A stretch of 33,110 bases of DNA from Bacillota bacterium (lineage in GTDB: Bacteria > Bacillota > Limnochordia > JAAZLZ01). Under the pieces are notes generated by a model. The model searched no databases. It was not told the DNA's origin and saw nothing but the letters and a program-made list of their open reading frames with translations. The stretch spans positions 1 through 33,110 of the forward strand of contig JAAZLZ010000138.1 in assembly GCA_012799075.1 (NCBI GenBank), in the 5' to 3' direction. Shown piece after piece: positions 7,728-29,288 of this stretch (positions are counted from its first letter, which is position 1; each line of letters opens with the position of its first letter). The position numbers were made by a program, and so were the translations under genes.

Positions 7728-7731
7728 GTGA

Positions 7732-8895: not shown

Positions 8896-8916
8896 TGAAA
8901 ATGAGGTGTGTAGATA

Positions 8917-9687: not shown

Positions 9688-9717
9688 TCCTGCGCCCGAA
9701 TGGCCCTCCCTGATTTC

Positions 9718-10760: not shown

Positions 10761-11024
10761 GTGGGTTGGATCACCATCCTTATTGTTGGTGCGATTCTCG
10801 GTTGGATTAGTGAAGCGTATCTAGTGAAACGGGAGTATCCCGGTCAGTTGTGGGGTGCAATTATCGCTGGTATTGTCGGTGCCTGGATCGGCGGCAAGTA
10901 TCTTGGCGTTTGGGGCTGGATGCTAGGCGGGGTTAATGTGATCGGCAGTGCGATTGTAGCGTTGATCTTGAGCTATGTCGTTGGTTTGTTTGGCGAAGAG
11001 GCCGCCGAAGAGAAAACCAAGTGA
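10761..11024 (+). CDS. GlsB/YeaQ/YmgE-family transglycosylase-associated small membrane protein
   Basis: (M)GWITILIVGAILGWISE... with glycine-zipper-rich transmembrane segments (GAIIAGIVGAWIGG). The GTG at 10761 lies 8 nt after GGGAGG; the alternative GTG at 10752 overlaps the RBS. Confidence 0.75.
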   Translation: MGWITILIVGAILGWISEAYLVKREYPGQLWGAIIAGIVGAWIGGKYLGVWGWMLGGVNVIGSAIVALILSYVVGLFGEEAAEEKTK

Positions 11025-11030
11025 TACTCC

Positions 11031-11059
11031 TTGACAGGGGGCGGATGATCGGCTATATT
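11031..11059 (+). promoter_or_regulatory. Sigma-A promoter of the metG T-box leader (TTGACA-N17-TATATT)
   Basis: Exact TTGACA at 11031-11036, a 17-nt spacer, then TATATT at 11054-11059. Confidence 0.6.
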
Positions 11060-11094
11060 TGGGACGGAAAAGGATTTAAAATCCCAAGCATCTA

Positions 11095-11370
11095 GCTGAA
11101 AGCGATGCGGGGGAGGAGTAGGCAGGCTGGATGGTTCTAGAGAGCCGGGTTAGGTGCAAGCCGGTGCCAAAGGTCTGCTGAAGATGGCCCCCAAGCTGCA
11201 GGCTGAAATCTCAAGTAGGCCGTGCCGGTAGACCCCCTGGGTCGTGCACCCGTTAACGTGCTAGGGTATTGATAAAGTACCCGAAGAGGCCATTGCCGCG
11301 AGGTGATGGCAAAGCAGGGTGGTACCGCGTGTAACCCTTCGCCCCTGTAATGGGGCGGAGGGTTTATTTT
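11095..11370 (+). promoter_or_regulatory. T-box riboswitch leader (Met specifier) controlling metG
   Basis: Conserved T-box sequence AGCAGGGTGGTACCGCG at 11312-11328. Stem I elements are present: an AGAGAG bulge (~11139) and a GGTGCAA distal loop (~11153). The candidate specifier is GAAG-ATG-G with AUG at 11184-11186. A terminator hairpin follows, and the downstream gene is metG. Confidence 0.85.
11333..11370 (+). terminator. Intrinsic terminator (attenuator) of the T-box leader
   Basis: AACCCTTCGCCCC-TGTAAT-GGGGCGGAGGGTT forms a 13-bp stem, followed by TATTTT. Its 5' arm begins two nt downstream of the T-box motif (which ends at 11328), as expected for the antiterminator/terminator alternative. 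Confidence 0.85.
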
Positions 11371-11390
11371 AATTGGAGGAGGCTTTCGCT

Positions 11391-16139: not shown

Positions 16140-16168
16140 TTGACACGCTCCGCACCCTCTTATATACT
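16140..16168 (+). promoter_or_regulatory. Sigma-A promoter (TTGACA-N17-TATACT) of the ABC/radical-SAM operon
   Basis: Exact TTGACA at 16140-16145, a 17-nt spacer, then TATACT at 16163-16168. Confidence 0.6.
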
Positions 16169-16248
16169 GACCTTGAACCAGCATTTCTGTTAAAACTTGC
16201 CATAATGACCTTCGACCTGCCCTTTCTAAGGTGCCTTCACTATGAAAC

Positions 16249-16363
16249 TGCAGGCGGCAGGGTATAACTGGAAACGGTTATGCCTCCCGTGTGGAAAGGA
16301 GGTTGGGCCTTGCCTCGCGAAAGTTGGGCCACTTTCCACTCTCCAGCGGAAAGTGGCTTTTGT
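16249..16363 (+). promoter_or_regulatory. Structured 5' leader: overlapping hairpins, an SD-sequestering helix and a terminator-like hairpin (unclassified cis-regulatory RNA candidate)
   Basis: GGTATAAC/GTTATGCC helix at 16261-16284. CCTCC (16283-16287) can pair with the SD GGAGG (16298-16302). GCCACTTTCC-N10-GGAAAGTGGC is a perfect 10-bp stem at 16328-16357, followed by TTTTGTTG. Confidence 0.4.
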
Positions 16364-17167
16364 TGTGCTGCCCCGACCGAATCAGCTCACCCTGCTATTG
16401 AAGTAGACAACCTTTCCTTCTCCTATTTCAGCAGAAAGGTTCTGGATGGCATCAACATTGTCGTCCCTAAAGGAGTGATCTGCGGCCTTCTTGGCCCCAA
16501 CGGCTCGGGCAAGACCACCCTCCTAAGATGCATCAACGGCCTTAGCCGGCCCCTCGAGGGCCAAGTGCTGATCGATGGGCAATCGGTCCAGTCGATGACG
16601 AGGCGAGAAATCGCCCGCAAAGTGAGCGTTATCCCCCAGCAGTCCAACATTGCCTTCCCCTTCAAAGCCATCGAACTGGTGGTAATGGGCAAGTGTCCGG
16701 AGCTTGAGCATTGGCAGTCCCCCGAGGAAGCCGACTATCTCAGGGCCAAAGAAGTTATGGAGAACCTGGGCATTGGACATTTGGCCCACCGCCGGGTGAC
16801 CGAAATCAGCGGCGGGGAAAGGCAGCTGGTCCTCATTGCCCGGGCTATTTTCCAAGGGGCCGACATCATGCTCCTGGATGAACCAACCGCCCACCTGGAT
16901 TACAGGAACCAGTTCGTCATCTTAAGGGTGGTGCAAGAAGTCGCCCGCCAGAAGAATTTGACCGTCCTCATTACTTTGCACAACCCCAACCTTGCCATTT
17001 ACTACTGCAGCCAGGCGGTCCTCCTCAAGGAGGGCCGAATCGTATCCTTGGGCCCCACCAAGGAGGTTTTTTGCGGCAGGGCCTTGAGCGAACTTTATGA
17101 CATGGACATCGCAATCGCAGATGTGGTGAACCGGAAGTGCCAAGTGGTGCTGCCGTCCGATTGGTAA
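16310..17167 (+). CDS. ABC transporter ATP-binding protein, FepC/BtuD (iron-siderophore/cobalamin) type
   Basis: Walker A GPNGSGKTTLL, signature SGGERQ, Walker B IMLLDEPTAHLD and an H-loop TLHNP. The start was assigned to the TTG at 16310 (7 nt after AAAGGAGG) and is uncertain. There is no ATG/GTG/TTG in frame between 16313 and the conserved IEVDNLSFSY N-terminus. Confidence 0.85.
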   Translation: MPRESWATFHSPAESGFCCAAPTESAHPAIEVDNLSFSYFSRKVLDGINIVVPKGVICGLLGPNGSGKTTLLRCINGLSRPLEGQVLIDGQSVQSMTRREIARKVSVIPQQSNIAFPFKAIELVVMGKCPELEHWQSPEEADYLRAKEVMENLGIGHLAHRRVTEISGGERQLVLIARAIFQGADIMLLDEPTAHLDYRNQFVILRVVQEVARQKNLTVLITLHNPNLAIYYCSQAVLLKEGRIVSLGPTKEVFCGRALSELYDMDIAIADVVNRKCQVVLPSDW

Positions 17168-17194: not shown

Positions 17195-18193
17195 ATGAAT
17201 AGGAGGCACTTTAACTGGCGTTGTTTGATGGGTCTGCTTTTGATTATGTCCGTGTTTGTTGGCTTTGCGTCGGCGCAAGGAATAGTGGTGGTGGATGGCC
17301 TTGGCCGGGAAATCAAGCTGGACCAGCCCGCCGAGCGGGTCTATATCAGTTATGGCATTGCCGGCACCATGGTGTATGCCCTTGGAGCCCAAGACAAGCT
17401 GGTGGGCATCGATCCTGAGACCAAAAAGACCGCGGTTTACGTGGCCTGGCCCTCGGGGGGCCGAAGCGAGTTCAACGTTGAAGAAGTCATCGCCCTCGAT
17501 GCCGACTTGATCCTGGTCCCCGGCAGAAATCGCCAGCTGGTGGAGAACCTTGAGGCCCATGGACTAAATGTATTTGGCATTGTGGCAGAAGATTTAAGTC
17601 AGCTGACAGATTCCATGGTCAACCTGGGCAAAGCCCTGGGCAAGGAAGACCGGGCCCAGCAATTCGTAGGCTATTACGATGCTATGGTCCAGCGGATCCA
17701 GCAAAAGACGGCCAACCTGGAAGAATCCCAGCGGCCGAAGGTCTACATGGTGGGCTCAAATCTACTGAGCACCTGCGGCGGGGAAATGTACCAGCACTAC
17801 TTGATCACCTTGGCAGGGGGCCGGAATGTGGTCGGCGCTGAGGGCGCTGGGGCCGAGCGCTGGTTTGAGATCTCCCCTGAGCAAATCGTCAAATGGAACC
17901 CGGATATCATCGTCGTCGTCCAGTATGCCGCGGATACAACCCCCCAAGACATCCTGGCCGATGAGCGCTTTGCCGGGGTGAACGCGGTCCAAAACAACCA
18001 GGTATTTTGGTTCCCCTCCAATTTGATTCCCTGGGACTATCCTTCGCCCCAAGCGATCCTTGGCATCGCCTGGATGGCCAATAAGCTCCATCCCGATCTA
18101 TTTGCCGATCTGGATGTGATGGAGGAGGCCGACGGGTTCTTCCAGATGCTCTATGGCAAGACCTACAGCGAACTTGGCGGCCTCCTTGACTAG
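17195..18193 (+). CDS. ABC transporter substrate-binding protein, FecB/BtuF (cluster A-II, periplasmic binding protein 2) type: SBP1
   Basis: Signal peptide ...LLIMSVFVGFASA-QG. Typical fold landmarks are LVGID, DLILVPG, VFWFPSN and WDYPSPQ. It is a paralogue of the 20381-21406 product. Confidence 0.85.
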   Translation: MNRRHFNWRCLMGLLLIMSVFVGFASAQGIVVVDGLGREIKLDQPAERVYISYGIAGTMVYALGAQDKLVGIDPETKKTAVYVAWPSGGRSEFNVEEVIALDADLILVPGRNRQLVENLEAHGLNVFGIVAEDLSQLTDSMVNLGKALGKEDRAQQFVGYYDAMVQRIQQKTANLEESQRPKVYMVGSNLLSTCGGEMYQHYLITLAGGRNVVGAEGAGAERWFEISPEQIVKWNPDIIVVVQYAADTTPQDILADERFAGVNAVQNNQVFWFPSNLIPWDYPSPQAILGIAWMANKLHPDLFADLDVMEEADGFFQMLYGKTYSELGGLLD

Positions 18194-18204: not shown

Positions 18205-19224
18205 ATGATTTGCAACTACTGCGAATGGAGATGTGACCTGGGGGAGGGCCGCCCTGGGGTGTGCCAGATGTATATTCAGCGGGGGGACCGCATCGAGGAA
18301 AGGCACCCCCACCATTACACCACCTACGCGGCGGTGCACATCGAATCGGTGCCCTTTTTCCACGCCTATCCAGGCAGTCGATCCTTGCAGATCGGAAGCC
18401 GCGGCTGCAACTTCGACTGCCATTACTGCAGCAATGCCTATGTGGCCAAGAGCCTTCCCGATGAGGTCTATACTTTTCATTTGAGCCCGGAGCGGATTGT
18501 GGATGTTGCCAGGAAGACTGGCTGTCACAACATCGTCTTTGCCGTCAATGAACCCATCGTATCCTTCCAATCGCTGATGGAGCTGGCCGACAAGGCAAAG
18601 GCGGCCGGACTGCCCCTTGGCTGTATGACCAACGGCTACATGACCGAGGAAGCTGCCGATGCCCTGGCTGAAAGCTGTGCCTTTGTCAATGTGAGTTTAA
18701 AAGGCTTTAGCCAGGAATTCTACGCCCGCTGCACCGGCATCCCCGATTTCGAGCCGGTGCTGCGAAACATAGGCAAGCTGACAGCTAAGACCCATGTGGA
18801 GGTCACAACGCCAATCATCCAGGATGTCAACGATCAAGACATCATGCCCATCGCGGAGTTTCTCGCGTCGGTCAACGCCAACATCCCCTGGCACGTATTT
18901 CGCCTCCTGCCCGAATACAAGATGAAGGACGAAGCTTATCCCAGCATCGAGCTGATCAATGACAAACTGGAGGAGGCGAGAAGGCTCCTTCCCTACATCT
19001 ATTTCAGCAACTTCGTCGGCTCCACCTGGGTCAGCACCTATTGTCCAAGCTGCGGCGAGAAAGTCATCGAGCGGTTGAACCTAGGGGGATGCGGCGGCAA
19101 AATGATTGATTTCCGCCTTGATGGGGCCAACCGGTGTTTGAACTGTCAAAGCCAAATCCCAATTCAGGGGCGATACGTCAAATGGAACTCGGGAGATGAA
19201 GGGCATGAACTATGCGGTGCTTGA
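18205..19224 (+). CDS. Radical SAM enzyme, COG1180 / AmmeMemoRadiSam-like (PflA-related) family
   Basis: CNFDCHYC is a CxxxCxxC cluster motif, preceded by PFFHAYPGSRSLQIGSRG. An N-terminal Cys-rich segment reads CNYCEWRCDLGEGRPGVC. The C-terminal zinc-ribbon-like segment CPSCGEKVIER...CLNC matches the layout I recall for TIGR04337-type enzymes. Confidence 0.8.
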   Translation: MICNYCEWRCDLGEGRPGVCQMYIQRGDRIEERHPHHYTTYAAVHIESVPFFHAYPGSRSLQIGSRGCNFDCHYCSNAYVAKSLPDEVYTFHLSPERIVDVARKTGCHNIVFAVNEPIVSFQSLMELADKAKAAGLPLGCMTNGYMTEEAADALAESCAFVNVSLKGFSQEFYARCTGIPDFEPVLRNIGKLTAKTHVEVTTPIIQDVNDQDIMPIAEFLASVNANIPWHVFRLLPEYKMKDEAYPSIELINDKLEEARRLLPYIYFSNFVGSTWVSTYCPSCGEKVIERLNLGGCGGKMIDFRLDGANRCLNCQSQIPIQGRYVKWNSGDEGHELCGA

Positions 19225-20362
19225 CGTTCGGGAGTGGGACATCACCATCGATCTAGAAAGGGGAACGCCTATCACCGGTGAGATCCCCGGCCCGGAGAAG
19301 CGAAGGCTCCAGCTTGCCAGGCGGCTCATCAAGGACCATCCATATCCGGGGGACTTCGCCCTGGAAAGCATGGAATGGGTGACCGATGGAGCTTTGAGGC
19401 TATGGAAAGCCTATGATCCGACCTTCATGTTCATCAGCTATGCCCAGCCCCAGATATTAGGCGGGGTCGTGGACATGACCACGGCCGACTGGCGCCGTCT
19501 GATCGACCGGCAATTCCAAAATGTGGACCGCTTCCTGGCCGAATCGGGCTTCACCCCCATTATCATCGGGCTGGGGGACCTGGTTCCCATCGAAGGTTAT
19601 GTTGACCTGTCAAGTTGGGACAGCTACGTTAGGAAGCCCGATCGGCTTTATGCGGGTCTTTATGGCCTGGAGGATGAGGATGACTTTAGTCGGTTGACCA
19701 ACACCCCCGGTGTGGAGCGACTCATCAGCAAGGAGGATTTCATTGCCAACTTCGGGGCCGGCAAGGACTTTGCCCGCCGGCTCCCCGATTACCTGGTCAT
19801 AGCCAAGGAAGGCCATACCTTCAAGACCATGGGCGGCTCCCCCCGGATGGGACTGAAGACGGTGGCCAGGAATTGGCGCATCCCCGTTTATACGCCACTG
19901 GATGATGCCATTCAGTCAATAGTCGACGTTAACGAAGTGGTCTTGCGGAATGCTGGGAAGGAGAGAATTGCCCTCATTGTCTTAGATGGCATAGGAATCG
20001 AAGACTTCCAAGGCCCCCATGAACTTTGCGCCAACAACTTCCATTGGTATACCTACTCCCAAGGGGATGACAGCTATCTAGCCTTGGGCACGGGGAAGCA
20101 CTTTCAATTCAATGATTATCCCCCCGGCTGGCTGAGCTTTGTTGAGGACCCCGAGGACAAAAGATGTCCCCACGATGGATACATCACCAGACTAGTCCCT
20201 GACAGCATCGGCAGCGTCCTCAGAAAGCAGGGGATCTCAAGCGGCGCCGTCGGCAGCAGGAGCACTTTTACTCACCTGGCCAGCGGCGCGGACATCTGTG
20301 TGGAATGCTGCTGCTGTGATTTGTACAACTATGGGACGAAGGCGGTTATCTACACTACTTAG
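19205..20362 (+). CDS. Conserved hypothetical cytoplasmic protein, unrecognised family (paralogue A)
   Basis: 385 aa with no signal peptide or transmembrane segment. It aligns along its full length with the 22504-23652 product, sharing DVREWD, PYPGD.ALES, RIPVYTPL, LDGIG..DF, YPPG, SGADI and LYNYGT. The start was set at ATG 19205 by alignment with the paralogue (MNYAVLDVREWD vs MSYGLIDVREWD). It overlaps the radical SAM gene by 20 nt. Confidence 0.75.
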   Translation: MNYAVLDVREWDITIDLERGTPITGEIPGPEKRRLQLARRLIKDHPYPGDFALESMEWVTDGALRLWKAYDPTFMFISYAQPQILGGVVDMTTADWRRLIDRQFQNVDRFLAESGFTPIIIGLGDLVPIEGYVDLSSWDSYVRKPDRLYAGLYGLEDEDDFSRLTNTPGVERLISKEDFIANFGAGKDFARRLPDYLVIAKEGHTFKTMGGSPRMGLKTVARNWRIPVYTPLDDAIQSIVDVNEVVLRNAGKERIALIVLDGIGIEDFQGPHELCANNFHWYTYSQGDDSYLALGTGKHFQFNDYPPGWLSFVEDPEDKRCPHDGYITRLVPDSIGSVLRKQGISSGAVGSRSTFTHLASGADICVECCCCDLYNYGTKAVIYTT

Positions 20363-20380
20363 ACAAAGGTGGCATAGGAA

Positions 20381-21406
20381 ATGCAAAGACATGTTAAGAA
20401 GTCGGTTTTGCTAGCGGTCGTCCTTGCTCTGTTGGCTGCCTGTTCGGCCTGGGCGGCAGATGTGGTGGTGACCGATGGGCTTGGCCGAGAGGTGGAAATC
20501 ACGCTCCCGGTCAATCGGATTGTCACGAACTATGGCATTGCCACCCATATGCTCTTTGCCCTCGGCGCGGAGGATCGACTAGTCGGCATCGACATGCCCT
20601 CCCAACAGGACAAGTTCTTCAATAGCCTGCGGCCGGAGGTTGGGACCATGGCCAGCGCGGGAAGTCCCAGGGAGCTCAATATCGAGCAGGCCATCGCCCT
20701 AAGGCCGGATTTGCTCTTGGTCCCGGGACGAAACCGCGACCTCATCGAAGGCCTTGAAGCCCGGGGTCTGACGGGTGTTTTCGGTGTTATCGCCGAAGAC
20801 CTGGATCAGCTAAGGACCACTATCGCTAGTTTAGGCAAGGCCCTGGGAGAAGAGGACAAGGCAGAGAAGTTCATCAAGTACTACGATGAAACCTTGGCCT
20901 GCATTGCGGACAGGACAAAGGATCTGGCCGAAGAGGAAAAGCCCCTGGTGTATATTGCCGGCCGGGACGGCCTGCTGTCAACCTGCGGGAAAGACATGTA
21001 TCAACACTCGGTGATTCAAATGGCGGGGGGCAGAAATGCAGGCGGCGACGATAGCCTTGGCGGGGCAGCCCAAGGCTGGTTTAAGGTCTCCCCTGAGCAG
21101 CTGATCAACTGGGACCCTGATTACATCCTGGTTGTCCGCTATGGAGTTGAAGTCACCCCCGAGCAGATTCTGTCCGATCCTCGCTTCCAAGGGGTCAGTG
21201 CAGTCCGCAACGGGCGCGTCCTTTGGTTCCCGTCGAATCTGAACTCATGGGACTTTCCGGCTCCCCAGGCCGTCTTGGGGGTCCAGTGGCTGGCCCGGCT
21301 CCTCCATCCTGACAAATTTGCCGATATGGATCTACAGAAAGATGTGGACGAGTTCTTCCGCACCTTCTACGGGAAGTCCTTTACCGAACTAGGCGGCGAA
21401 ATGTAA
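20381..21406 (+). CDS. ABC transporter substrate-binding protein, FecB/BtuF type: SBP2
   Basis: Signal peptide MQRHVKKSVLLAVVLALLAACSAWA. It is collinear with SBP1 and roughly half the residues look identical by eye (DGLGRE, LVGID, LLLVPGRNRDL, STCGKDMYQH, WFPSNL). Confidence 0.85.
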   Translation: MQRHVKKSVLLAVVLALLAACSAWAADVVVTDGLGREVEITLPVNRIVTNYGIATHMLFALGAEDRLVGIDMPSQQDKFFNSLRPEVGTMASAGSPRELNIEQAIALRPDLLLVPGRNRDLIEGLEARGLTGVFGVIAEDLDQLRTTIASLGKALGEEDKAEKFIKYYDETLACIADRTKDLAEEEKPLVYIAGRDGLLSTCGKDMYQHSVIQMAGGRNAGGDDSLGGAAQGWFKVSPEQLINWDPDYILVVRYGVEVTPEQILSDPRFQGVSAVRNGRVLWFPSNLNSWDFPAPQAVLGVQWLARLLHPDKFADMDLQKDVDEFFRTFYGKSFTELGGEM

Positions 21407-21416
21407 GTGCTCTTCC

Positions 21417-21438
21417 GGGGTCCGTCACTTCGGACCCC
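21417..21438 (+). other. Intercistronic GC-rich hairpin (GGGGTCCG-TCACTT-CGGACCCC) between SBP2 and the permease gene
   Basis: Perfect 8-bp stem read directly from the sequence. There is no U-run afterwards, so it is more likely an mRNA-stability or processing element than a terminator. Confidence 0.4.
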
Positions 21439-21468
21439 GATTGAATTTATGTTCAGGTGGTTGAAGGA

Positions 21469-22485
21469 ATGAAGCGTAATCATGCAATAGCAGCGGCCGC
21501 GATCCTGCTCCTTGCCTGTTTTCTCCTGTCCATGTCCATCGGCCGATATCCTCTGCAGGCAAGGAAGGTAGTGGAACTGATCAAGCTCAAGGTGCAGCTT
21601 CGTGAACCTGATAAGGACATGTTCAATGATTATGTGGTTTTTTGGTCCATCAGGCTGCCCCGGGTCCTAATGGCCTCCTCCGTGGGGGCTGTCCTTGCCA
21701 TTGCGGGTACGGTCTTTCAAGGGCTTTTCCGGAACCCCTTGGTTTCTCCCGATATCCTCGGAGTGTCTGCGGGAGCTGGCTTTGGGGCTGGCCTTGCCAT
21801 CCTGCTCTTTGGCAAATCCGCCGCAGCCATTCAGATTTCGGCCTTTGCCTTCGGTCTCTTAGCGGTATCGGCCGCATATGGGATGAGCCGCTATGCCCGG
21901 AGCCACTCGGTGACCACTCTGGTTTTGTCGGGGGTCATTGTCTCCGCGTTGTTTTCCGCGGGGCTTTCTTTTCTCAAGTATGTGGCCGACCCTTACGAAC
22001 AGCTGCCGGCCATTGTCTTTTGGACCATGGGCAGCTTCAGCAACACCCTGTGGGCTGACTTGGCCAAGACCTTTCCCGCGATGGCTTTCTGCATCGTGGT
22101 CCTGTTTGTCCTCCGTTGGAAGCTCAATGTCTTGACCCTGGGCGATGATGATGCCATGGCGCTGGGAATAGACGTTGCCAAGGCCCGAGGAGTCTACATC
22201 TTCCTTGCCACATTGATGGTGGCATCATCGGTCTCATCCTGCGGGACCATTGGCTGGGTGGGGCTGGTGGTCCCCCACATGGCCCGACTGATTGTGGGCC
22301 CCGATCATACCATCCTGCTGCCCTTTGCCGGCCTTCTCGGTGCAAGCTTTATGGTCCTGATGGACACCCTCGCCCGGAGCATCACCGGCGGCGAGATACC
22401 CATCAGCATCATGACCTCACTCATTGGAGCTCCGTTCCTCGGCTATCTCATGCTGAAGCAAGACAGGGACCAATGGGGAAGTTGA
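21469..22485 (+). CDS. ABC transporter permease, FecCD/BtuC family
   Basis: About 10 predicted transmembrane segments. Family motifs are LPRVLMA..VGA.LA.AG..FQ...RNPL..P..LGVS.GA and a C-terminal GAPFLGYLM. Start is the ATG at 21469 (or the GTG at 21457). Confidence 0.88.
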   Translation: MKRNHAIAAAAILLLACFLLSMSIGRYPLQARKVVELIKLKVQLREPDKDMFNDYVVFWSIRLPRVLMASSVGAVLAIAGTVFQGLFRNPLVSPDILGVSAGAGFGAGLAILLFGKSAAAIQISAFAFGLLAVSAAYGMSRYARSHSVTTLVLSGVIVSALFSAGLSFLKYVADPYEQLPAIVFWTMGSFSNTLWADLAKTFPAMAFCIVVLFVLRWKLNVLTLGDDDAMALGIDVAKARGVYIFLATLMVASSVSSCGTIGWVGLVVPHMARLIVGPDHTILLPFAGLLGASFMVLMDTLARSITGGEIPISIMTSLIGAPFLGYLMLKQDRDQWGS

Positions 22486-22503
22486 TTTAAGGGAGATGAA
22501 AAC

Positions 22504-23652
22504 ATGAGCTACGGCTTGATCGATGTGAGGGAGTGGGATGTTTTCGTCGATTTGACCACCGGGGAGCCGGTAGATCCCCCCGGTCTTGAAATTGAGGGTT
22601 TGGTTCGCGGAATCGTCGGTCGGAACCCCTACCCGGGGGATCTTGCCCTTGAAAGCATCGATTGGGTGACCAGGCTTGCCCTTGAACTCGATCGGGCCTA
22701 CCAGCCCCAATTCATGATGCTCACCTACGCGAACCAGTACTTCCTATCCCGCTATGAAGGGCTTTCGCCCTCCCTTTGGAAGGACACCACCAGCCGCATC
22801 TTTGCCCAGGTCGATGGGTTTGTCCGCACAACCGGGTTCATCCCCATAGTTGTGGGCCTGGGCAGGATGATTCCCCTGCGCCAGTACATCGATCTTAACG
22901 ACCTAGACGGGCTGGTCGTCGCCGGCGGCGGCTCCGCTCATTATGCGGGGATCTTTGCACCCAGCGAGCGGGATCTTGCACGGCTTGGGAGAATGCCGGG
23001 GATCGAGAAAGTAGTGGCCAGGGATGATTTTCTTCGGGAGTTCGGGGGAAGCCCCGACTTCATCAGGCGTTTTCCGGACTATCTTTTGGCAGCCGAGGAA
23101 GGCTCTACTTTCAAGGCTTATGGGGGCATGGCCAGGCCCATGTACAAAATTCCCGCCAAAGACAGCCGCATCCCGGTGTATACTCCCCTATTGGGACATC
23201 TGGTCTCCTTGACTGACATAAAGGGCCTAATCATGGAGGCGATTGCCACGAATCGGGTCGCCCTGATCCTCTTGGAGGGGATCGGCGCTGGGGACTTCCA
23301 GCTCGACTACCGCCTGTGTTCCAACCAGGCCAACTGGTTCACCTACAACCATGGTGAAAGCCACTACCTGGCCATCACTACCGGGAGACATCTCCAGTAC
23401 AATCACTATCCGCCGGGCTATAAGTACTACATCGACGATCACGAAACAAGGGCAAATCCCTATGCTGGGCCTTTCGTTGACACCCCTTCCCACACCATCG
23501 GTCAGGAGCTTAGGCAAAGGGGCCTCAAAAGCGCGGCGGTGGGCAATAGGAGCGTCCTCACCCATATGACTAGCGGCGCCGACATTGCGATTGAATGTCT
23601 GGCCCGGGGCCTGTATAATTACGGCACTCTAGCGGCCTTCAACGTTGACTAA
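22504..23652 (+). CDS. Conserved hypothetical cytoplasmic protein, unrecognised family (paralogue B)
   Basis: 382 aa, full-length paralogue of the 19205-20362 product. RBS AGGGAGA lies upstream of the ATG. No signal peptide or transmembrane segment. Confidence 0.75.
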   Translation: MSYGLIDVREWDVFVDLTTGEPVDPPGLEIEGLVRGIVGRNPYPGDLALESIDWVTRLALELDRAYQPQFMMLTYANQYFLSRYEGLSPSLWKDTTSRIFAQVDGFVRTTGFIPIVVGLGRMIPLRQYIDLNDLDGLVVAGGGSAHYAGIFAPSERDLARLGRMPGIEKVVARDDFLREFGGSPDFIRRFPDYLLAAEEGSTFKAYGGMARPMYKIPAKDSRIPVYTPLLGHLVSLTDIKGLIMEAIATNRVALILLEGIGAGDFQLDYRLCSNQANWFTYNHGESHYLAITTGRHLQYNHYPPGYKYYIDDHETRANPYAGPFVDTPSHTIGQELRQRGLKSAAVGNRSVLTHMTSGADIAIECLARGLYNYGTLAAFNVD

Positions 23653-23682: not shown

Positions 23683-23711
23683 TTGACAGCAGGGAAACCG
23701 TCCTGTATACT
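23683..23711 (+). promoter_or_regulatory. Sigma-A promoter (TTGACA-N17-TATACT) for the tRNA pair
   Basis: Exact TTGACA at 23683-23688, a 17-nt spacer, then TATACT at 23706-23711, which is 14 nt upstream of tRNA-Lys. Confidence 0.6.
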
Positions 23712-23724
23712 ATGTTTTGCGAAT

Positions 23725-23799
23725 GGGTCATTAGCTCAGTGGTAGAGCACCGGACTTTTAATCCGGGTGTCGGAGGTTCGAGTCCTCCATGACTCACCA
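23725..23799 (+). tRNA. tRNA-Lys (anticodon UUU), CCA encoded
   Basis: Folded by hand. The acceptor is GGGTCAT/ATGACTC and the D-arm is AGCTCAGTGGTAGAGC. The anticodon stem CCGGA/TCCGG carries loop CTTTTAA, and the T-arm is GGAGGTTCGAGTCCTCC. Terminal ACCA. Confidence 0.92.
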
Positions 23800-23800: not shown

Positions 23801-23876
23801 GCCCCCATCGTCTAGCGGCCTAGGACACCGCCCTTTCACGGCGAAGGCAGGGGTTCAAATCCCCTTGGGGGTACCA
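23801..23876 (+). tRNA. tRNA-Glu (anticodon UUC), CCA encoded
   Basis: GCCCCCATCGTCTAGCGGCCTAGGACACCGCCCTTTCACGGCG... closely parallels the canonical bacterial tRNA-Glu. The anticodon loop is CTTTCAC and the T-arm is GGGGTTCAAATCCCC. Terminal ACCA. Confidence 0.92.
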
Positions 23877-23887
23877 TGAAAATCTTG

Positions 23888-23914
23888 CCACCGACTGGGT
23901 TCGGTGGTTTTTTC
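23888..23914 (+). terminator. Rho-independent terminator after the tRNA pair
   Basis: CCACCGA-CTGGGT-TCGGTGG followed by TTTTTTC. Confidence 0.8.
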
Positions 23915-23984: not shown

Positions 23985-24947
23985 ATGGCACCCATCATCG
24001 AGGCCAACAACTTACGGAAGAGTTTTGGCGATGTGGAAGCAGTGGCCGACATCTCCTTCCGCATTGAAAAAGGAGAGCTGTTTGGCTTCCTCGGGCCTAA
24101 CGGGGCCGGCAAGACGACCACCATCAAGATGCTAACGGGCCTTGCTCGGCCGGATGGGGGGACCCTTTACCTTGGCGGCATCGACTGTACCGACGATCCG
24201 AAGGCGGCCCAGCACCTAATTGGAGTTGTTCCTGATGAAAGCAATCTCTATCCAGAGCTGACCGGGCTGGAGAACCTTTGTTTTTGCGCCGCCCTGTATG
24301 GGATGGACAAGTCCCGTCGTCAAGCCCGGGCCCGTGAGCTTTTGGATTCCTTTGGCCTTGCCCAAGCAGCCGACCGCAAGTTCGGCTCCTATTCCAAAGG
24401 GATGAAACGCAAGCTTGCTATTGCCGCGGGCATCATCCATCGACCGGCAATCCTCTTCTTAGATGAGCCCACCACGGGAATTGATGTCCTAAGCGCCCGG
24501 CAGATCCGCCAGCTGATCGCCGAGCTGCACCGCTTAGGGACCACCATCTTCCTCACCACCCATTACATCGAGGAGGCAGAAAGGCTGTGTGAACGGATTG
24601 CGTTCATCGTATCAGGGCGTATTGTCCGCATCGACAGCATCGAGCATCTCCTCCAGTCGGTGCAGGGCAAACACATGATGGAAATATCGTGGGCAAATCC
24701 CCTTGCCCATGGGGAAAACCTCGCGCAGGCCTTCCCTGAACTGACAGTTGAGACTTTGCTGCCGGGAACCATCCGGATCGAATCGGATGAGCCCATCCAT
24801 GTGGGGGTCCTGGTTCGCTTCCTAGAGGAGCAAGGCGGCCACGTCCTTGAGGCCAGGAGGATCCAGCCCTCCTTGGAGGATGTGTTTATCAACATTACCG
24901 GAATCAAGGGTGAAAGCATGCGAAACGAGGGAGGAAGGGGAGCATGA
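23985..24947 (+). CDS. ABC transporter ATP-binding protein (ABC-2/DrrA-like exporter subfamily)
   Basis: Walker A GPNGAGKTTT, signature YSKGMKRKL, Walker B ILFLDEPTTGID, an H-loop TTHY and a C-terminal accessory domain. RBS AGGAGGG. Confidence 0.88.
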   Translation: MAPIIEANNLRKSFGDVEAVADISFRIEKGELFGFLGPNGAGKTTTIKMLTGLARPDGGTLYLGGIDCTDDPKAAQHLIGVVPDESNLYPELTGLENLCFCAALYGMDKSRRQARARELLDSFGLAQAADRKFGSYSKGMKRKLAIAAGIIHRPAILFLDEPTTGIDVLSARQIRQLIAELHRLGTTIFLTTHYIEEAERLCERIAFIVSGRIVRIDSIEHLLQSVQGKHMMEISWANPLAHGENLAQAFPELTVETLLPGTIRIESDEPIHVGVLVRFLEEQGGHVLEARRIQPSLEDVFINITGIKGESMRNEGGRGA

Positions 24948-25681
24948 AGGGTTGGATCGCTTTCTGGAACATCTTCATCAAGGACATTCGCACCTATTAT
25001 TTGAAGCCCCCGAATATCAGCTGGGGACTGATTTTCCCCCTGTCCTGGACCGGCATGTTCTTCATCAGATCGGGAGCCGGACTGGAAAGCATCCCGGAAG
25101 TTTTGCCTGGAGTGACCGCCCTGTCCGTCTTGTTTGGCACCACCTCCATGTTGGCGGTGACCATCACTTTTGAAAAGAAGAATCGGACCTTTGAGCGATT
25201 GCTTCTTGCACCCATCTCCCTGGAACTGTTGATGTTGGCAAAAACCGCGGGGGCCATCTTGTTTGGCATCGCCAACGGATTCGCACCCCTTATCCTGGCT
25301 GGATTTGCCGCCGATCTGTCCGGCCTAGATCCGGTGATCTTCTTTCTTGGTTTGGTGATGGTAGCCGTCGTTTCAGCCTTCCTCGGGCTGTTCGTCGCTG
25401 TGGCCGTCCAGGAGGTTTTCGAGGCCCAAACCCTCTCCAACTTCTTTCGCTTCCCCATGATGTTCTTGTGCGGATTCTTCTTTCCCATCGAAAAGCTTCC
25501 TGTTTTCCTCAGGCCTTTGTCTTATGTTTTGCCCATGACTTATGGGGTGGACATCCTCCGGGGGGCAGTCCACGGGGGGAATAAGATGGCCTATGGGCTA
25601 AGCTTTCTTGTCCTAGGCGCATTTTGTGTGGGCCTCTTCTTCAAGAGCATCGGCAACGTCAGGCGCAATTGGATTATCTAG
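24944..25681 (+). CDS. ABC-2 type transporter permease
   Basis: 245 aa with six hydrophobic segments. The start overlaps the upstream ATPase stop in an ATGA, the usual arrangement for ABC-2 pairs. Confidence 0.8.
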   Translation: MKGWIAFWNIFIKDIRTYYLKPPNISWGLIFPLSWTGMFFIRSGAGLESIPEVLPGVTALSVLFGTTSMLAVTITFEKKNRTFERLLLAPISLELLMLAKTAGAILFGIANGFAPLILAGFAADLSGLDPVIFFLGLVMVAVVSAFLGLFVAVAVQEVFEAQTLSNFFRFPMMFLCGFFFPIEKLPVFLRPLSYVLPMTYGVDILRGAVHGGNKMAYGLSFLVLGAFCVGLFFKSIGNVRRNWII

Positions 25682-25855: not shown

Positions 25856-26380
25856 ATGGACAGGGAGCTTTGGGAAAGGGCTGTTAAGTTTCATGGACAC
25901 CGGTGTCCGGGGCTGGCCATCGGGTTTAAGGCCTGCGAGGCGGCCAAGGAAAAGATGGGACTTGAGTTTTCGCCGGATGAGCAGATTGTCTGCGTCACGG
26001 AGAACGACGCCTGTGGGGTGGATGCGATCCAGCTCATTACAGGCTGTACCTTAGGCAAGGGCAACCTGCTGTATAAAGACAGGGGGAAGATGGCCTACAG
26101 TTTCTTCAACCGAAGCAGCGGGGACAGCCTCCGGATGATCCTAAAGCCGCTGCCGGAGGAAATGGATCGGGAAGATCGCCTGGAATACCTGCTAAATGCG
26201 CCTGCCGGTGAGATTTTCCGGTTCAGCACGCCGAATTTCCCGGTGCCGGAAAGGGCACGAATCTTGAAAACTGTCATTTGCGAAGTCTGTGGCGAGGGTG
26301 CAGCGGAGCACAAAATCCGGCTGAAGGAAGGCAAGAAAATCTGTCTGGATTGCTTCAAGGAGTATTCCAGGGGCTGGTAA
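25856..26380 (+). CDS. FmdE/FwdE-domain protein with C-terminal zinc ribbon
   Basis: The N-terminus AVKFHGHRCPGLAIGFKA is the FmdE-family signature. Followed by ENDACGVDAIQ..TGCT.GKGNL and a C-terminal CEVCGE...CLDC ribbon. Confidence 0.85.
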   Translation: MDRELWERAVKFHGHRCPGLAIGFKACEAAKEKMGLEFSPDEQIVCVTENDACGVDAIQLITGCTLGKGNLLYKDRGKMAYSFFNRSSGDSLRMILKPLPEEMDREDRLEYLLNAPAGEIFRFSTPNFPVPERARILKTVICEVCGEGAAEHKIRLKEGKKICLDCFKEYSRGW

Positions 26381-26393
26381 AAGGAGATGCGAG

Positions 26394-27440
26394 ATGGACA
26401 ACTACCGACGCTATACGGCCAACAAGGGCCTGGCGACGTTGGCCTTGGTGCTGCTGATCGGCATCGTCGCCATGATTGCCCTCAATGCCGGTTCAATGGA
26501 CTTAAATCCGCATCAGGTTATTCGCTCTATCATCGGCAAAGGCGCCGATGTGGCCGATATCGTCATCTGGCAGATCCGCTTGCCAAGGATCTTGGCAGCC
26601 ATCATCGCGGGAGCCGGATTGTCAGTGGCCGGTTGCGTAATGCAAAATAACCTAAGAAACCCGTTGGCCTCACCTTCCACCCTGGGAATAGCTAATGCAG
26701 CAGCCTTTGGAGCCAACATGGCCATCATCGTCTTTGGCGCTGGCAGCATCCGCAGCACCGGAGCCGATGCCGTCAACATATCCAACCCCTATTCCGTTGC
26801 CTTCTCGGCGTTTATTTGGGCGATGGCGGCCGCCTTGATCATCTTGCTCTTGGCCAGGACCCGCGGCTTCTCACCGGAGGCCATTGTCCTAGCCGGTGTA
26901 GCCTTAAGCTCACTCTTTTCGGCAGGCACCATCTTGATCCAGTACTTTGCCCAGGATGTGCAAGTTGCGGCCGCGGTTTTCTGGACCTTTGGCGACCTGG
27001 GAAGGGCGGCGTGGAATGAGGTCCTTATTCTATCCCTTATTGTCGCCTCGGCACTTATCTATTTCATGCTCCGCAGGTGGGATTACAATGCCCTCGATAG
27101 CGGTGAAGAGACTGCCAAAAGTCTTGGCGTCAATGTTGAAAGGGTCCGCCTAGGGGGGATGATGGCCTCATCCCTCATCACCGGGGCAGCTGTATCCTTT
27201 TTGGGCATCATCGGTTTCATTGGCCTAGTTGCTCCCCACATGATGCGGAGGGTGCTGGGGGGCGATCACAGACAGTTGATTCCAGCATCGGCCCTCGCAG
27301 GTGCGCTGCTGCTGTTGGTTTCCGACACGGTAGCAAGAACCATAATTGCACCGGTCGTTCTTCCCGTCGGGGCGATCACCTCTTTTTTTGGTGCGCCGCT
27401 ATTTCTTTACCTACTGGCAAGGGGGTATGAGCAGAAGTGA
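26394..27440 (+). CDS. ABC transporter permease, FecCD/BtuC family (second system)
   Basis: IRLPRILAAIIAGAGLSVAGCVMQNNLRNPLASPSTLGI, VAPHMMRR and a GAPLFLYLL C-terminus. RBS AAAGGAG lies 8 nt upstream. Confidence 0.9.
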   Translation: MDNYRRYTANKGLATLALVLLIGIVAMIALNAGSMDLNPHQVIRSIIGKGADVADIVIWQIRLPRILAAIIAGAGLSVAGCVMQNNLRNPLASPSTLGIANAAAFGANMAIIVFGAGSIRSTGADAVNISNPYSVAFSAFIWAMAAALIILLLARTRGFSPEAIVLAGVALSSLFSAGTILIQYFAQDVQVAAAVFWTFGDLGRAAWNEVLILSLIVASALIYFMLRRWDYNALDSGEETAKSLGVNVERVRLGGMMASSLITGAAVSFLGIIGFIGLVAPHMMRRVLGGDHRQLIPASALAGALLLLVSDTVARTIIAPVVLPVGAITSFFGAPLFLYLLARGYEQK

Positions 27441-28189
27441 TTCTAACAGTTGAAGGGCTAGAGTTTGAATACCCCAGCCGCCCAGTCCTTAAGGACATCA
27501 ACTTTTCCATTGCCAACGGGGATTTCCTGGCTGTCCTCGGGATCAATGGCGCCGGCAAGTCCACCCTTCTTAAGTGCATCAATAGAATCCTCCAGCCCCA
27601 AGTGGGGACTGTACTTATCCGGGGAGATGATGCCTCAAGACTCAGTCGACGGGAGTTGGCCAAGAGAATCGGTTATGTTGCCCAGCACCATGAAAGGACC
27701 AGGACAACTGTTTTTGATGCGGTGCTATTGGGAAGAAAGCCATACATCCAATGGGAAGCTTCAACCAAGGATATGGAAATCGTCCAGGAAGCTCTAACGA
27801 CCCTTGGACTGGACAGCTACGCCCTGCGATACGTTGATGAGTTGAGTGGAGGAGAGCGGCAGAAAGTAGTCATCGCCAGGGCCCTGGCCCAACAGCCCCA
27901 GCTCCTCTTGCTAGATGAGCCCACCCACAGTCTTGACCTGAAGAACCAGTTCGATGTGTCCCGGCTCATCAAAAGAATAATCAAGGAGGAGCAGCTAGCT
28001 GCCGTTGTGGCCATGCACGATCTCAATTTGGCCATGCGCTTCGCCAATAGATTTATGCTGCTCAAGGACGGTGTGATTTTCGCCGCCGGGGGCTTTGAAG
28101 TGATGACCCAAGAGAACATTGAGAGTGTGTACTCCCTGCCCGTTAAAATCAAGCAATTTGGGGATATACCCGTGGTGATACCTGCCTGA
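27437..28189 (+). CDS. ABC transporter ATP-binding protein, FepC/BtuD type (second system)
   Basis: Walker A GINGAGKSTLL, signature SGGERQ, Walker B LLLLDEPTHSLD and an H-loop MHDLN. The GTG start overlaps the permease stop (GTGA). Confidence 0.9.
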   Translation: MILTVEGLEFEYPSRPVLKDINFSIANGDFLAVLGINGAGKSTLLKCINRILQPQVGTVLIRGDDASRLSRRELAKRIGYVAQHHERTRTTVFDAVLLGRKPYIQWEASTKDMEIVQEALTTLGLDSYALRYVDELSGGERQKVVIARALAQQPQLLLLDEPTHSLDLKNQFDVSRLIKRIIKEEQLAAVVAMHDLNLAMRFANRFMLLKDGVIFAAGGFEVMTQENIESVYSLPVKIKQFGDIPVVIPA

Positions 28190-28214
28190 ATTATAATAAG
28201 GGAGTGGGTTAGCA

Positions 28215-29288
28215 GTGGTTCAAAGACATAAGACTTTGGCCGTTGTCATTTTTTGCCTACTGCTGGGAGCTGTTGGTCAAGCCCAAGGCGTTATGATAAC
28301 AGACATGACGGGCAGGCAGATAGAATTGCCCGCCCACGCTAAACGAATCATCGCCATTGGCCCCGGCGCCTTAAGGCTTTGCTCTTATTTCAAGGAGCCG
28401 GACATGATCGTCGGCATCGAACAGATTGACAAGGACAGCAGTATCGGCAGGCCCTATGTAATCGCCAATCCTTCTTATGCCAGTCTGCCTGTAATAGGAC
28501 CAGGGGGCCCCAATAATGCTCCCGATCCGGAGAAGCTCCTATCCGTCAAGCCAGATGTTATCTTCAGCACCTACGGGTCCGATAGGGCCTTCACCGACAA
28601 TCTGCAATCGAAAACCCACATTCCCGTTGTGGCCCTAAGCTACGGACAAACCGCGGTCTTCGATCCCGCCGTTTATGATTCCATCCGACTCATTGGCCAG
28701 GTCATAGGCAACGAGGAGAAAGCCCAAGGGATCGTGGATTATATGGAAATGTGCCGCCTGGACCTCCACAATCGAACGAAAGACATCCCCGATGCCGATC
28801 GGCCCAAGGTCTACATGGGCGGGGTCAACATGAAAGGCTCCCATGGCATTGAAAGCACCCAAGGAAACTACGCCTTGTTCAACGCTGTTAATGCCAAGAA
28901 CGTAGTCGACGAACTTGGCAATACGGGCTCCCTCATGATAGATAAGGAAAAACTGATTCAGTGGAATCCCGACGTTATTTTCCTCGATGAAGGCGGGCTG
29001 GAAGCGGTTGGGCACGATTACCAGAAAAACAGCCGCTACTATAAGGTCCTTGCGGCAGTTAAAAACGGCCGGATCTATGGGCAGCTGCCCTACAACTACT
29101 ACACGACCAATATCGATACGGCCATCGCGGATGCTTACTACATCGGCAAAGTACTCTATCCCCAGCAGTTCGCGGATATCGATCCAGCAGCAAAAGCCGA
29201 CGAGATCTATGAATTTCTCGTGGGGAAGGAGCTCTATTCCAAGATGGCAGCCGATTACGGCGGGTTCATGGTCCTCACCCTAGAATAG
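28215..29288 (+). CDS. ABC transporter substrate-binding protein, FecB/BtuF-like (second system, divergent long form)
   Basis: Signal peptide ...CLLLGAVGQAQG. Landmarks are RIIAIGPGALR, IVGIE, KPDVIFS and NPDVIFLDE. It is not closely similar to SBP1 or SBP2. Confidence 0.8.
   Translation: MVQRHKTLAVVIFCLLLGAVGQAQGVMITDMTGRQIELPAHAKRIIAIGPGALRLCSYFKEPDMIVGIEQIDKDSSIGRPYVIANPSYASLPVIGPGGPNNAPDPEKLLSVKPDVIFSTYGSDRAFTDNLQSKTHIPVVALSYGQTAVFDPAVYDSIRLIGQVIGNEEKAQGIVDYMEMCRLDLHNRTKDIPDADRPKVYMGGVNMKGSHGIESTQGNYALFNAVNAKNVVDELGNTGSLMIDKEKLIQWNPDVIFLDEGGLEAVGHDYQKNSRYYKVLAAVKNGRIYGQLPYNYYTTNIDTAIADAYYIGKVLYPQQFADIDPAAKADEIYEFLVGKELYSKMAADYGGFMVLTLE

Follow-up and report, generated by a model that had tools for sequence, protein, structure and literature searches.

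Moco/Tuco riboswitches (RF01055) are described upstream of moa, mod and tup genes and of Mo/W enzymes. The described regulon comprises molybdate transporters, Moco biosynthesis enzymes and Moco-using proteins, plus some genes of unknown function, and RNAs of this class that lack stem P3 correlate with tungsten-cofactor metabolism (PMC2408646). Molybdate and tungstate are taken up in Haemophilus influenzae by MolBC-A (HI1470-HI1472), a type II ABC importer with a FecCD-type permease, an ATPase and a Peripla_BP_2 binding protein (PMC4031551). Two further types of system bear on the present locus. The alkaline-phosphatase (AP) superfamily includes phosphonoacetate hydrolase PhnA (PDB 1EI6) and the nucleotide pyrophosphatase/phosphodiesterases ENPP4/6/7 (Pfam PF01663), and the only known pairing of a radical-SAM enzyme with a member of this superfamily is that of anaerobic sulfatase-maturating enzyme (anSME/AtsB), a SPASM-domain protein encoded next to its sulfatase, in which it makes formylglycine. 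AmmeMemoRadiSam system radical-SAM enzymes (TIGR04337) and the glycyl-radical activases of the PflA family are the closest described relatives of the radical-SAM enzyme encoded here.

We analysed a window of 33,110 nucleotides from a Bacillota bacterium (contig JAAZLZ010000138.1), in which two look-alike proteins, A and B, are encoded in a seven-gene operon behind a Moco/Tuco riboswitch of the P3-lacking type. As in MolBC-A, a FecCD-type permease, an ATPase and Peripla_BP_2 binding proteins are present, but the window has two paralogous binding proteins, the riboswitch, and the radical-SAM gene and the genes for A and B interleaved with the transporter genes. The radical-SAM enzyme resembles the PflA/AmmeMemoRadiSam type and not the SPASM type of anSME. 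The paper describing the riboswitch regulon (PMC2408646) contains no occurrence of "radical SAM", and we found no description of the module in the searchable literature on DUF364, radical SAM and TonB, on Moco riboswitches with transporters, on molybdophores and tungstophores, on AmmeMemoRadiSam or on FmdE.

The operon and its paralogous pair

The features of the locus, all on the + strand, are as follows.
16140..16168 (+), sigma-70-like promoter (TTGACA-17-TATACT) in front of the riboswitch; 11 of 12 consensus positions match, and this is a consensus match only.
16198..16317 (+), Moco/Tuco riboswitch aptamer (RF01055), P3-lacking variant, 74.5 bits against a gathering score of 36, with the model positions for P3 deleted; its 3' part contains the Shine-Dalgarno AAAGGAGG (16295-16302) of the first gene.
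16310..17167 (+), ABC transporter ATPase (Pfam ABC_tran, 1.5e-33); the mechanical ORF starts at 16280, but the in-frame TTG at 16310 behind the Shine-Dalgarno is the more likely start.
17195..18193 (+), secreted substrate-binding protein 1 (Peripla_BP_2, 1.2e-29, MolA-like) with a signal peptide.
18205..19224 (+), radical-SAM enzyme of the PflA/AmmeMemoRadiSam type with CNFDCHYC, an N-terminal Cys cluster and C-terminal zinc-ribbon-like CxxC pairs; it overlaps the start of A by 20 nt.
19205..20362 (+), family protein A (385 aa), with an ECCCC motif near the C-terminus.
20381..21406 (+), substrate-binding lipoprotein 2 (Peripla_BP_2, 5e-27, MolA-like), 50% identical to binding protein 1.
21457..22485 (+), FecCD-family (type II importer) permease (Pfam FecCD, 1.5e-88).
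22504..23652 (+), family protein B (382 aa), with ECLAR in place of ECCCC.
25856..29288 (+), probably associated second importer, comprising an FmdE-zinc-finger protein (25856-26380), a FecCD permease (26394-27440), an ATPase (27437-28189) and binding protein 3 (28215-29288), identified by Pfam; its association in this window is inferred.

The observation made in the first-pass annotation, a pair of paralogous cytoplasmic proteins without a nameable family, was confirmed. The ORF of A can start at 19196 or 19205, and homologues support the latter, MNY start. BLASTP of A against B gave 163/384 identities (42%), 62% positives, 7 gaps and E=4e-115 over both proteins end to end, and every shared motif block listed in the annotation appears in this alignment. 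Neither protein has a signal peptide or a transmembrane segment, the maximum 19-residue Kyte-Doolittle means being 1.33 and 1.51, against 2.25-2.57 for the neighbouring binding proteins and permease. The possibility that one copy is a decaying pseudogene, named beforehand as a point that would count against the pair, could be rejected: both proteins keep all 18 invariant family positions, and A and B are each orthologous to a separate copy in two other operons (A-A 58-68%, B-B 59-68%, A-B 41-46% identity). The duplication is therefore old and both copies are maintained.

No curated family was found. Pfam and NCBIfam gave nothing for either protein, Pfam gave nothing for any of 34 family members even at E<=10, and sequence and profile searches of the PDB returned nothing meaningful. 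We refer to this previously unannotated family as X.

The radical-SAM gene matches Pfam Radical_SAM (PF04055) at 1.1e-22, with 81.4 bits against a cutoff of 29.5, and carries the CX3CX2C cluster motif. It aligns over its full length to TIGR04337 (residues 2-324 to model positions 13-333), but the score of 168.6 bits is below the family cutoff of 220, and no Memo or AMMECR1 domain was found in the window ORFs scanned; X takes the partner position instead. Activase models were matched more weakly. The enzyme is 50-56% identical to the radical-SAM enzyme next to the family gene in other loci.

Predicted fold and conserved positions of family X

The first-pass interpretation was borne out only in part. 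The faint resemblance it saw to the alkaline-phosphatase/metalloenzyme superfamily, while leaving the family open, is right at the level of the predicted fold. AlphaFold models with pLDDT of 88.8 and 90.9 show an α/β core with an inserted cap, and the proteins are similar in size to PhnA and the ENPPs (about 385-405 aa). For B, Foldseek gave 1ei6 chains as best hits (E=4.7e-6 to 7e-5, probability 1.00, 216-277 columns, TM 0.35-0.37), followed by ENPP6, ENPP4 and ENPP1; for A, the top hit was ENPP7 (E=9.8e-3). The match is partial (TM 0.23-0.37) and has no support at sequence level: none of the 34 members matched a curated model of the clan (PF01663, PF01676, PF00884, PF00245) at E<=10, and hhalign of the family profile against E. 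coli phosphopentomutase (DeoB), a cap-bearing AP member for which only a single template sequence was used, gave a probability of 0.08%.

Canonical AP chemistry was not supported. The putative nucleophile position at the helix start, position 55, is variable (S25/A6/G2/N1), whereas Y47-P48-G49-D50 nearby are invariant; positional equivalence is here inferred from secondary structure and not from a superposition. No DxxxH or DH ligand pairs are conserved. Candidate metal ligands are only D7 (32/34) at the end of strand 1, E/D261 (34/34) at the end of the strand carrying LEG/LDG, and H357 (34/34), the residue after 261 being an invariant Gly and not His; the equivalence of D7 and E/D261 to the acidic residues of PhnA and the ENPPs is likewise inferred. 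The suggestion of a metalloenzyme made in the annotation stays putative. That X might be an ordinary phosphatase, phosphodiesterase or phosphonate hydrolase, unrelated to Mo/W, rests on the Foldseek best hits, phosphonoacetate hydrolase and the ENPPs. We consider this very unlikely, since the Thr/Ser nucleophile and, as far as can be inferred, most Zn ligands are not conserved, no Pfam AP-clan model matches any of the 34 members, and the linkage to the radical-SAM enzyme and to Mo/W genes holds across phyla.

Another possibility is that X is itself the substrate of the radical-SAM enzyme, which would install a post-translational modification or a protein radical that creates the active residue of X. 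The characterised PflA-type members act on proteins, X has a predicted AP-superfamily fold without a conserved nucleophile but with an invariant YPGD loop where the nucleophile would be expected, and the genes are tightly coupled and sometimes fused. This reading would be compatible with any of the substrates considered below. However, a pattern search over the 34 members found no conserved glycyl-radical motif (RVxG[FWY]), the few hits lying at non-homologous positions around 108-116, and no conserved sulfatase C/S-x-P/A-x-R motif. Covalent fusion of a maturase to its one-shot substrate would be unusual, and the window has one radical-SAM enzyme for two copies of X. We regard this option as unlikely.

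Genomic neighbourhood in related loci

The context, overlooked in the first-pass annotation as regards the adjacent radical-SAM gene, the riboswitch and the parallel duplication of the binding protein, is our main result. Related loci were collected with a 15-sequence sub-alignment of the family, which samples mainly the single-copy clade. In 84 of 87 such loci, from anaerobic bacteria and one methanogen, the same radical-SAM gene sits directly 5' of the X gene, usually with a 4-nt overlap. Starting from the radical-SAM side, 4 of 4 loci had a Pfam-less gene of 379-388 aa directly 3' of it, and for two of them homology to B was confirmed by BLASTP. Several lineages fuse the two genes; six representative fusion proteins were found, plus one further protein, P0035.

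RF01055 lies directly 5' of the operon in the window and also directly 5' in the related loci numbered L004, L008, L009, L010/L092 (Syntrophomonas wolfei), L058 (Geobacter), L073, L074 and L095, in at least nine independent loci in all; the first five all lack P3. No cobalamin or other riboswitch class was found in the 17 loci scanned with Rfam. In L058 the order is Moco RNA, Mop, ModA, ModB, ModC, radical-SAM gene, X. ModA occurs in 5 loci, ModD in 7, Mop in 5 and XdhC in 2. MoeA and MFS_MOT1 each occur in 3 neighbouring ORFs of a census of 141 ORFs. FmdE and DUF364 each occur in 27 of 87 loci, and in L074 a TrmO-FmdE gene sits behind its own Moco RNA. Best PDB matches of the window's binding proteins were 4hn9 and 4ovk, which have no known ligand, but MolA (3psa) followed with E=5.6e-20 for binding protein 1 and, over its full length, 1.3e-29 for binding protein 2, ahead of siderophore, haem and B12 binders.

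Most Desulfobacterota-type loci, however, carry no riboswitch. Instead they carry TonB-dependent receptors (38/87), SAM methyltransferases (36/87) and DUF364 (27/87), a pattern that fits an organic chelate or a cofactor-like substrate better than a free oxyanion. A metallophore system may be an option: the radical-SAM enzyme and X would either build a small Mo/W-binding compound from a common metabolite, to be exported and re-imported, or break down an imported chelate to release the metal, in parallel to anaerobic haem degradation by ChuW/HutW. The importer is of the FecCD/Peripla_BP_2 class used for siderophores, haem and B12, a DUF364 enzyme was recently shown to do SAM-derived azetidine chemistry (PMC12930334), and exporters lie next to the Firmicutes operons (ABC-2 in the window, MatE in L004, MFS/EamA in L008 and ABC exporters in L009). 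Yet exporters are common neighbours by chance, the Firmicutes operons lack the methyltransferase and DUF364 genes, and some loci (L058, L015) couple the pair only to ModABC and Mop, which carry the free oxyanion. No molybdophore or tungstophore of this kind turned up in the literature search. This hypothesis appears doubtful to us, although it is the strongest of the alternatives.

A pterin or cofactor route is somewhat less likely still. Here the importer would salvage molybdopterin, Moco or a precursor, in the way B12 riboswitches control BtuFCD, and the radical-SAM enzyme and X would repair or convert it, or would form a non-orthologous alternative to a biosynthetic step such as MoaA/MoaC. 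Cofactor riboswitches commonly control salvage transporters, and X has many invariant aromatic and acidic residues (Y47, W58, Y79, Y149, F268, W281, Y291; D50, D160), as expected for a heterocycle-binding site. Neighbours include XdhC, a Moco chaperone family, ModD, a cytidine/guanine-deaminase-fold protein in 11/87 loci, and phosphoesterases/NTPases (Metallophos in 13 and NTPase_1 in 9 of the 141 neighbouring ORFs). The translationally coupled layout resembles MoaA+MoaC, and some databases label the radical-SAM enzyme "molybdenum cofactor biosynthesis protein". The similarity to MoaA is generic, though (about 51 bits against cutoffs of 231-325), the binding proteins resemble MolA, an oxyanion binder, Moco is extremely labile outside proteins, and a bacterial Moco importer is not known.

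A possible module of molybdenum and tungsten assimilation

Our preferred but still tentative reading is that X, with a remote AP-superfamily fold of the NPP/phosphonoacetate-hydrolase type whose active-site residues would have been replaced, works as the fixed partner of the radical-SAM enzyme in an accessory module of molybdenum/tungsten assimilation. In this view, the P3-less riboswitch would let the operon be expressed when Moco/Tuco is scarce, and a MolBC-A-like importer with two paralogous binding proteins would bring the metal species into the cell. In the cytoplasm the radical-SAM enzyme and X would act on that species, or on its immediate carrier or nucleotide-linked form, so that it can enter cofactor synthesis. 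The parallel duplication of binding protein and X (binding protein 1 with A, binding protein 2 with B) suggests two related substrates, for example W and Mo species. We are confident of the paralogy, the fold class in the predicted models, the linkage to and fusions with the radical-SAM gene, the riboswitch and the Mo/W gene neighbourhood. The cytoplasmic processing role, an oxyanion-type substrate and the splitting of substrates between A and B are inferred, as are any metal dependence or catalysis by X and oxyanion binding by the binding proteins. No known step of Mo/W insertion needs a radical-SAM enzyme, and the link between P3-less RNAs and Tuco is correlative only (PMC2408646).

A more far-reaching version of this reading, which we consider possible but not likely, is that the pair carries out a so far unknown, radical-SAM-dependent step in tungsten/molybdenum acquisition or activation in strict anaerobes, both bacteria and methanogens. 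X would be an AP-fold protein repurposed to bind or transform the metal oxyanion or its carrier, and the duplicated pairs of binding protein and X would separate tungsten from molybdenum. If so, the canonical picture (ModABC/TupABC, then MoeA) is incomplete for anoxic, sulfidic habitats, and the long-orphan FmdE, ModD and DUF364 neighbours would gain a functional frame.

Molybdenum and tungsten enzymes drive formate, aldehyde, nitrate, CO2 and sulfur metabolism in anaerobes, and how these organisms obtain the two metals and tell them apart, especially under sulfidic conditions, is only partly understood. The two-gene module occurs in at least about 160 species-level genomes, including the cultured Syntrophomonas wolfei, four Sporomusa species, Syntrophorhabdus aromaticivorans and Methanofollis formosanus, and is found with three different classes of molybdate transporter (MolBC-A-like, ModABC, MOT1) and, in part of the loci, behind the cofactor riboswitch. 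This makes it a concrete candidate for a missing step. It would also expand the known riboswitch regulon, extend the AP superfamily beyond phosphoryl and sulfuryl transfer and give a second example of a radical-SAM/AP-fold partnership.

Paralogy and rarity of the family

The two plus-strand ORFs of the window, A (19196/19205..20362) and B (22504..23652), aligned end to end in BLASTP with 163/384 identical positions (42%), 62% similarity and E=4e-115. The observation of a paralogous pair made in the first-pass annotation held, and every motif block it had listed was found in this alignment. Neither protein showed a hydrophobic N-terminus or a TM-like segment: the maximum 19-residue hydropathy was 1.33 for A and 1.51 for B, whereas the adjacent binding proteins and permease reached 2.25-2.57. 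Both genes are preceded by a GGGAG Shine-Dalgarno sequence 9 nt before the ATG, and the start of A overlaps the end of the upstream gene by 20 nt.

Pfam and NCBIfam gave no hit for A or B, Pfam gave none for any of 34 members of their family (X) at E<=10, and sequence and profile searches of the PDB found nothing. The family is rare. A word-indexed search of 5.8 billion proteins returned 35 clusters, a search of 1.84 billion 50%-identity representatives returned 140 hits, about 60 of them full length, and relatives were present in 159 of 185,579 species-level genomes, the latter count covering the main clade alone. The family alignment showed 18 invariant positions, Y47, P48, G49, D50, W58, P72, G122, G124, D160, P194, P227, G262, F268, N277, W281, S346, A348 and H357, all of which are kept in B; D7, W11, H299, E367, C368, N375 and G377 were near-invariant.

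A and B each have an orthologue in two other operons, loci L004 and L008, with identities of 58-68% for A-A, 59-68% for B-B and 41-46% for A-B. The duplication is therefore old and both copies are under selection. The A-type paralogues of the window (residues 367-371, window 20290-20310), L004 and L008 carry a conserved run of four cysteines (ECCCC), where B-type and single-copy relatives have ECL(A/V)R or ECFAR. This could be a thiophilic metal or cluster site specific to the copy adjacent to the radical-SAM gene.

Predicted fold

The AlphaFold2 models were confident, with pLDDT 88.8 and pTM 0.92 for A and pLDDT 90.9 and pTM 0.93 for B. In Foldseek searches against the PDB, A had no hit at E<=1e-3, its top hit being ENPP7 at E=9.8e-3. 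For B the top hits were four chains of phosphonoacetate hydrolase 1EI6 (E=4.7e-6 to 7e-5, probability 1.00, 216-277 columns, TM 0.35-0.37), followed by ENPP6, ENPP4, ENPP1 and autotaxin. Both models therefore point to the NPP/PhnA branch of the alkaline-phosphatase (AP) superfamily, which shares the size of X and its core-plus-cap layout.

The match is, however, remote and partial. The family profile did not align to E. coli phosphopentomutase. With residue equivalences inferred from secondary structure, the residue at the start of the helix where AP enzymes carry their nucleophile was variable (S25/A6/G2/N1), the acidic residue of the L(E/D)G block was followed by an invariant Gly rather than by the His of the AP 'DH' pair, and no DxxxH was conserved. 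The first-pass annotation had left the family open while noting a faint resemblance of this block to the metal-binding motif of AP-superfamily metalloenzymes; this interpretation was partly supported, at the level of the predicted fold. We infer that the scaffold and the pocket position are retained while the chemistry has changed.

Operon, radical-SAM partner and molybdenum/tungsten context

The two genes lie in a seven-gene operon, the elements of which are as follows (calls for the genes from Pfam and NCBIfam).

Elements of the operon, all on the plus strand
16140-16168, sigma-70-like promoter
16198-16317, Moco/Tuco riboswitch (74.5 bits against a gathering score of 36)
to 17167, ABC ATPase
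17195-18193, Peripla_BP_2 binding protein 1
18205-19224, radical-SAM enzyme
19205-20362, A
20381-21406, binding protein 2
21457-22485, FecCD permease
22504-23652, B

The Rfam alignment showed that the P3 stem of the riboswitch is deleted. Regulski et al. reported that P3-less representatives track tungsten-cofactor metabolism (PMC2408646). The Shine-Dalgarno sequence AAAGGAGG of the first gene lies in the 3' arm of the aptamer, and an in-frame TTG at 16310 follows it. The two binding proteins are 50% identical, so that the operon contains a duplicated unit of binding protein plus X. Their best PDB matches were two structural-genomics proteins of unknown ligand, followed by MolA (HI_1472) at E=5.6e-20 and 1.3e-29, ahead of all siderophore, haem and B12 binders. 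MolA is the molybdate/tungstate binding protein of the type II importer MolBC-A (PMC4031551). The radical-SAM enzyme (rSAM) has CNFDCHYC, an N-terminal four-Cys motif and C-terminal CxxC pairs. It aligned over its full length to the AmmeMemoRadiSam rSAM model but scored 168.6, below the cutoff of 220, and it hit glycyl-radical activases and MoaA only generically.

Immediately after gene B lie tRNA-Lys(ttt) at 23725-23799 and tRNA-Glu(ttc) at 23801-23876 (plus strand), with their own 11/12 promoter-like site (23683-23711) and a terminator-like hairpin (23887-23908). They separate the riboswitch operon from the downstream ABC-2 exporter genes (23985-25681). A second importer cluster (25856-29288, plus strand) is headed by an FmdE + DksA/TraR-type zinc-finger protein, followed by FecCD, an ATPase and a binding protein. 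This binding protein 3 is very close to the Thermotoga maritima TM0189-type protein 2etv (E=8e-111), and no riboswitch precedes the cluster. Since FmdE recurs in 27 of 87 family loci, the cluster may belong to the same system. Elsewhere in the window, a T-box leader (RF00230, 106.6 bits; 11096-11349, plus strand) lies directly upstream of the methionyl-tRNA synthetase gene (11373-13295), which is ordinary Firmicutes-type regulation and helps place the organism in Bacillota.

We compared 87 non-redundant loci, with ORFs classified by BLASTP against seed proteins.

Gene classes in loci of the family (loci out of 87)
Radical-SAM gene, 84
Peripla_BP_2 binding protein, 61
ABC ATPase, 59
FecCD permease, 55
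TonB-dependent receptor, 38
SAM methyltransferase, 36
FmdE, 27
DUF4213/DUF364, 27
Cytidine-deaminase-fold protein, 11
XdhC, 2

Wherever the radical-SAM gene was present it lay immediately 5' of X, typically with its stop codon overlapping the X start by 4 nt (rSAM ends at 8004, X starts at 8001). The exceptions were second X copies, two truncated contigs and locus L067. The reciprocal test also held: four of four loci retrieved through the rSAM have a Pfam-less gene of 379-388 aa directly downstream, two of which were confirmed as X, with 41% identity to B in the methanogen Methanofollis formosanus and 50% in a Thermoanaerobacteraceae MAG. The M. formosanus locus (L093, CP037968) has a 736-aa double-length Peripla_BP_2 protein (6711-8921) upstream of rSAM-X, followed by a methyltransferase, FecCD and an ATPase. 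The module therefore crosses the bacteria/archaea divide. Six representative proteins of 668-734 aa, plus the protein P0035, are rSAM-X fusions, and the rSAM part of one fusion is 52% identical to the rSAM of the window. Across loci the rSAM (50-56% identity) is more conserved than X (35-44%). One rival to the reading favoured below is maturation of X by the rSAM, by analogy with anSME and sulfatases, although no glycyl-radical or sulfatase motif is conserved.

The TonB receptors, methyltransferases, DUF364 proteins and type II importers among these neighbours support another rival, a metallophore made or degraded by rSAM and X. In Desulfobacterota-type clusters the module is also accompanied by large radical-SAM proteins (550-590 aa) with a Peripla_BP_2-like domain (locus L006, 1077-2834 and 15373-17151; locus L007, 12851-14503), alongside small ORFs of 56-64 aa and a cytidine-deaminase-fold gene. 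A group II intron (RF02001 and RF00029; 13636-13975, minus strand) about 4.5 kb downstream of X in Syntrophorhabdus aromaticivorans (locus L020) is unrelated to the finding.

The riboswitch RF01055 lies directly 5' of the transporter-rSAM-X operon in the window and in loci L004, L008, L009, L010/L092 (Syntrophomonas wolfei), L073, L074 and L095. In the Geobacter locus L058 it also heads the operon, which there reads riboswitch, Mop, ModA, ModB, ModC, rSAM, X, with ModA scoring above the TIGR01256 cutoff. No other riboswitch class was found in the 17 loci scanned with Rfam. ModA is adjacent in five loci, ModD-like genes occur in seven, the L074 copy being above the TIGR01334 cutoff, and Mop occurs in five. 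In L095 a second riboswitch heads a ModABC operon right after X-DUF364. In L074 a divergently oriented Moco riboswitch (3322-3438, minus strand) controls a TrmO_N-FmdE fusion protein and a ModD gene (2329-3153 and 1481-2194, minus strand). TrmO-FmdE-like proteins occur in 14 of the retrieved loci, and this arrangement ties the orphan FmdE family to cofactor-sensing regulation. In L073, from a Syntrophomonas MAG, a second Moco-type riboswitch (9292-9411) lies directly after X and precedes a GAF-domain/ABC-ATPase fusion gene (9963-11198), an unusual architecture for a riboswitch-controlled gene.

A Pfam census of 141 otherwise unassigned ORFs within 2.2 kb of rSAM-X found MoeA (3), MoCF_biosynth (4), the MOT1 molybdate transporter (3), Metallophos phosphoesterases (13, often directly 3' of X), NTPase_1 (9) and TonB/ExbB. 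The calcineurin-like phosphoesterase genes, present in 13 loci and exemplified by that at 9137-10192 in locus L016, had no NCBIfam match; together with the NTPase_1 genes they hint at a nucleotide or phosphoester intermediate in the pathway. Pterin or cofactor salvage, or an alternative biosynthetic step, is a further rival, supported by the aromatic and acidic invariant residues of X and by the XdhC, deaminase, ModD and phosphoesterase neighbours. The module is thus tied to three unrelated classes of molybdate/tungstate transporter and to cofactor-sensing RNA, across Bacillota, Desulfobacterota and, through a ModB/ModC-type (TOBE-domain) transporter about 7 kb away, a methanogen.

A putative accessory module of Mo/W assimilation

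In the best-supported reading, X is a new family on a predicted AP-type scaffold, it is the fixed partner of a PflA/AmmeMemoRadiSam-like radical-SAM enzyme, and the pair is an accessory module of Mo/W assimilation, induced when the cofactor is scarce. The paralogy, the fold class of the models, the linkage and fusion to the rSAM, the riboswitch and the Mo/W gene neighbourhood rest directly on the data, whereas any chemistry, an oxyanion-type substrate and a role in the cytoplasm are inferred. We tentatively favour cytoplasmic processing of the imported metal species, because AP-type pockets are built for tetrahedral oxyanions, AP-superfamily enzymes binding tungstate, molybdate and vanadate, and because some operons contain only ModABC, Mop, rSAM and X. 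This reading and its rivals are not all mutually exclusive.

Our literature searches found no description of this module. The riboswitch study mentions 'genes of unknown function' in an S. wolfei operon but does not mention radical SAM at all (PMC2408646). In conclusion, our data point to a divergent AP-superfamily branch with a new partner and in a new context, and there is a substantial chance that it marks a new biochemical step.
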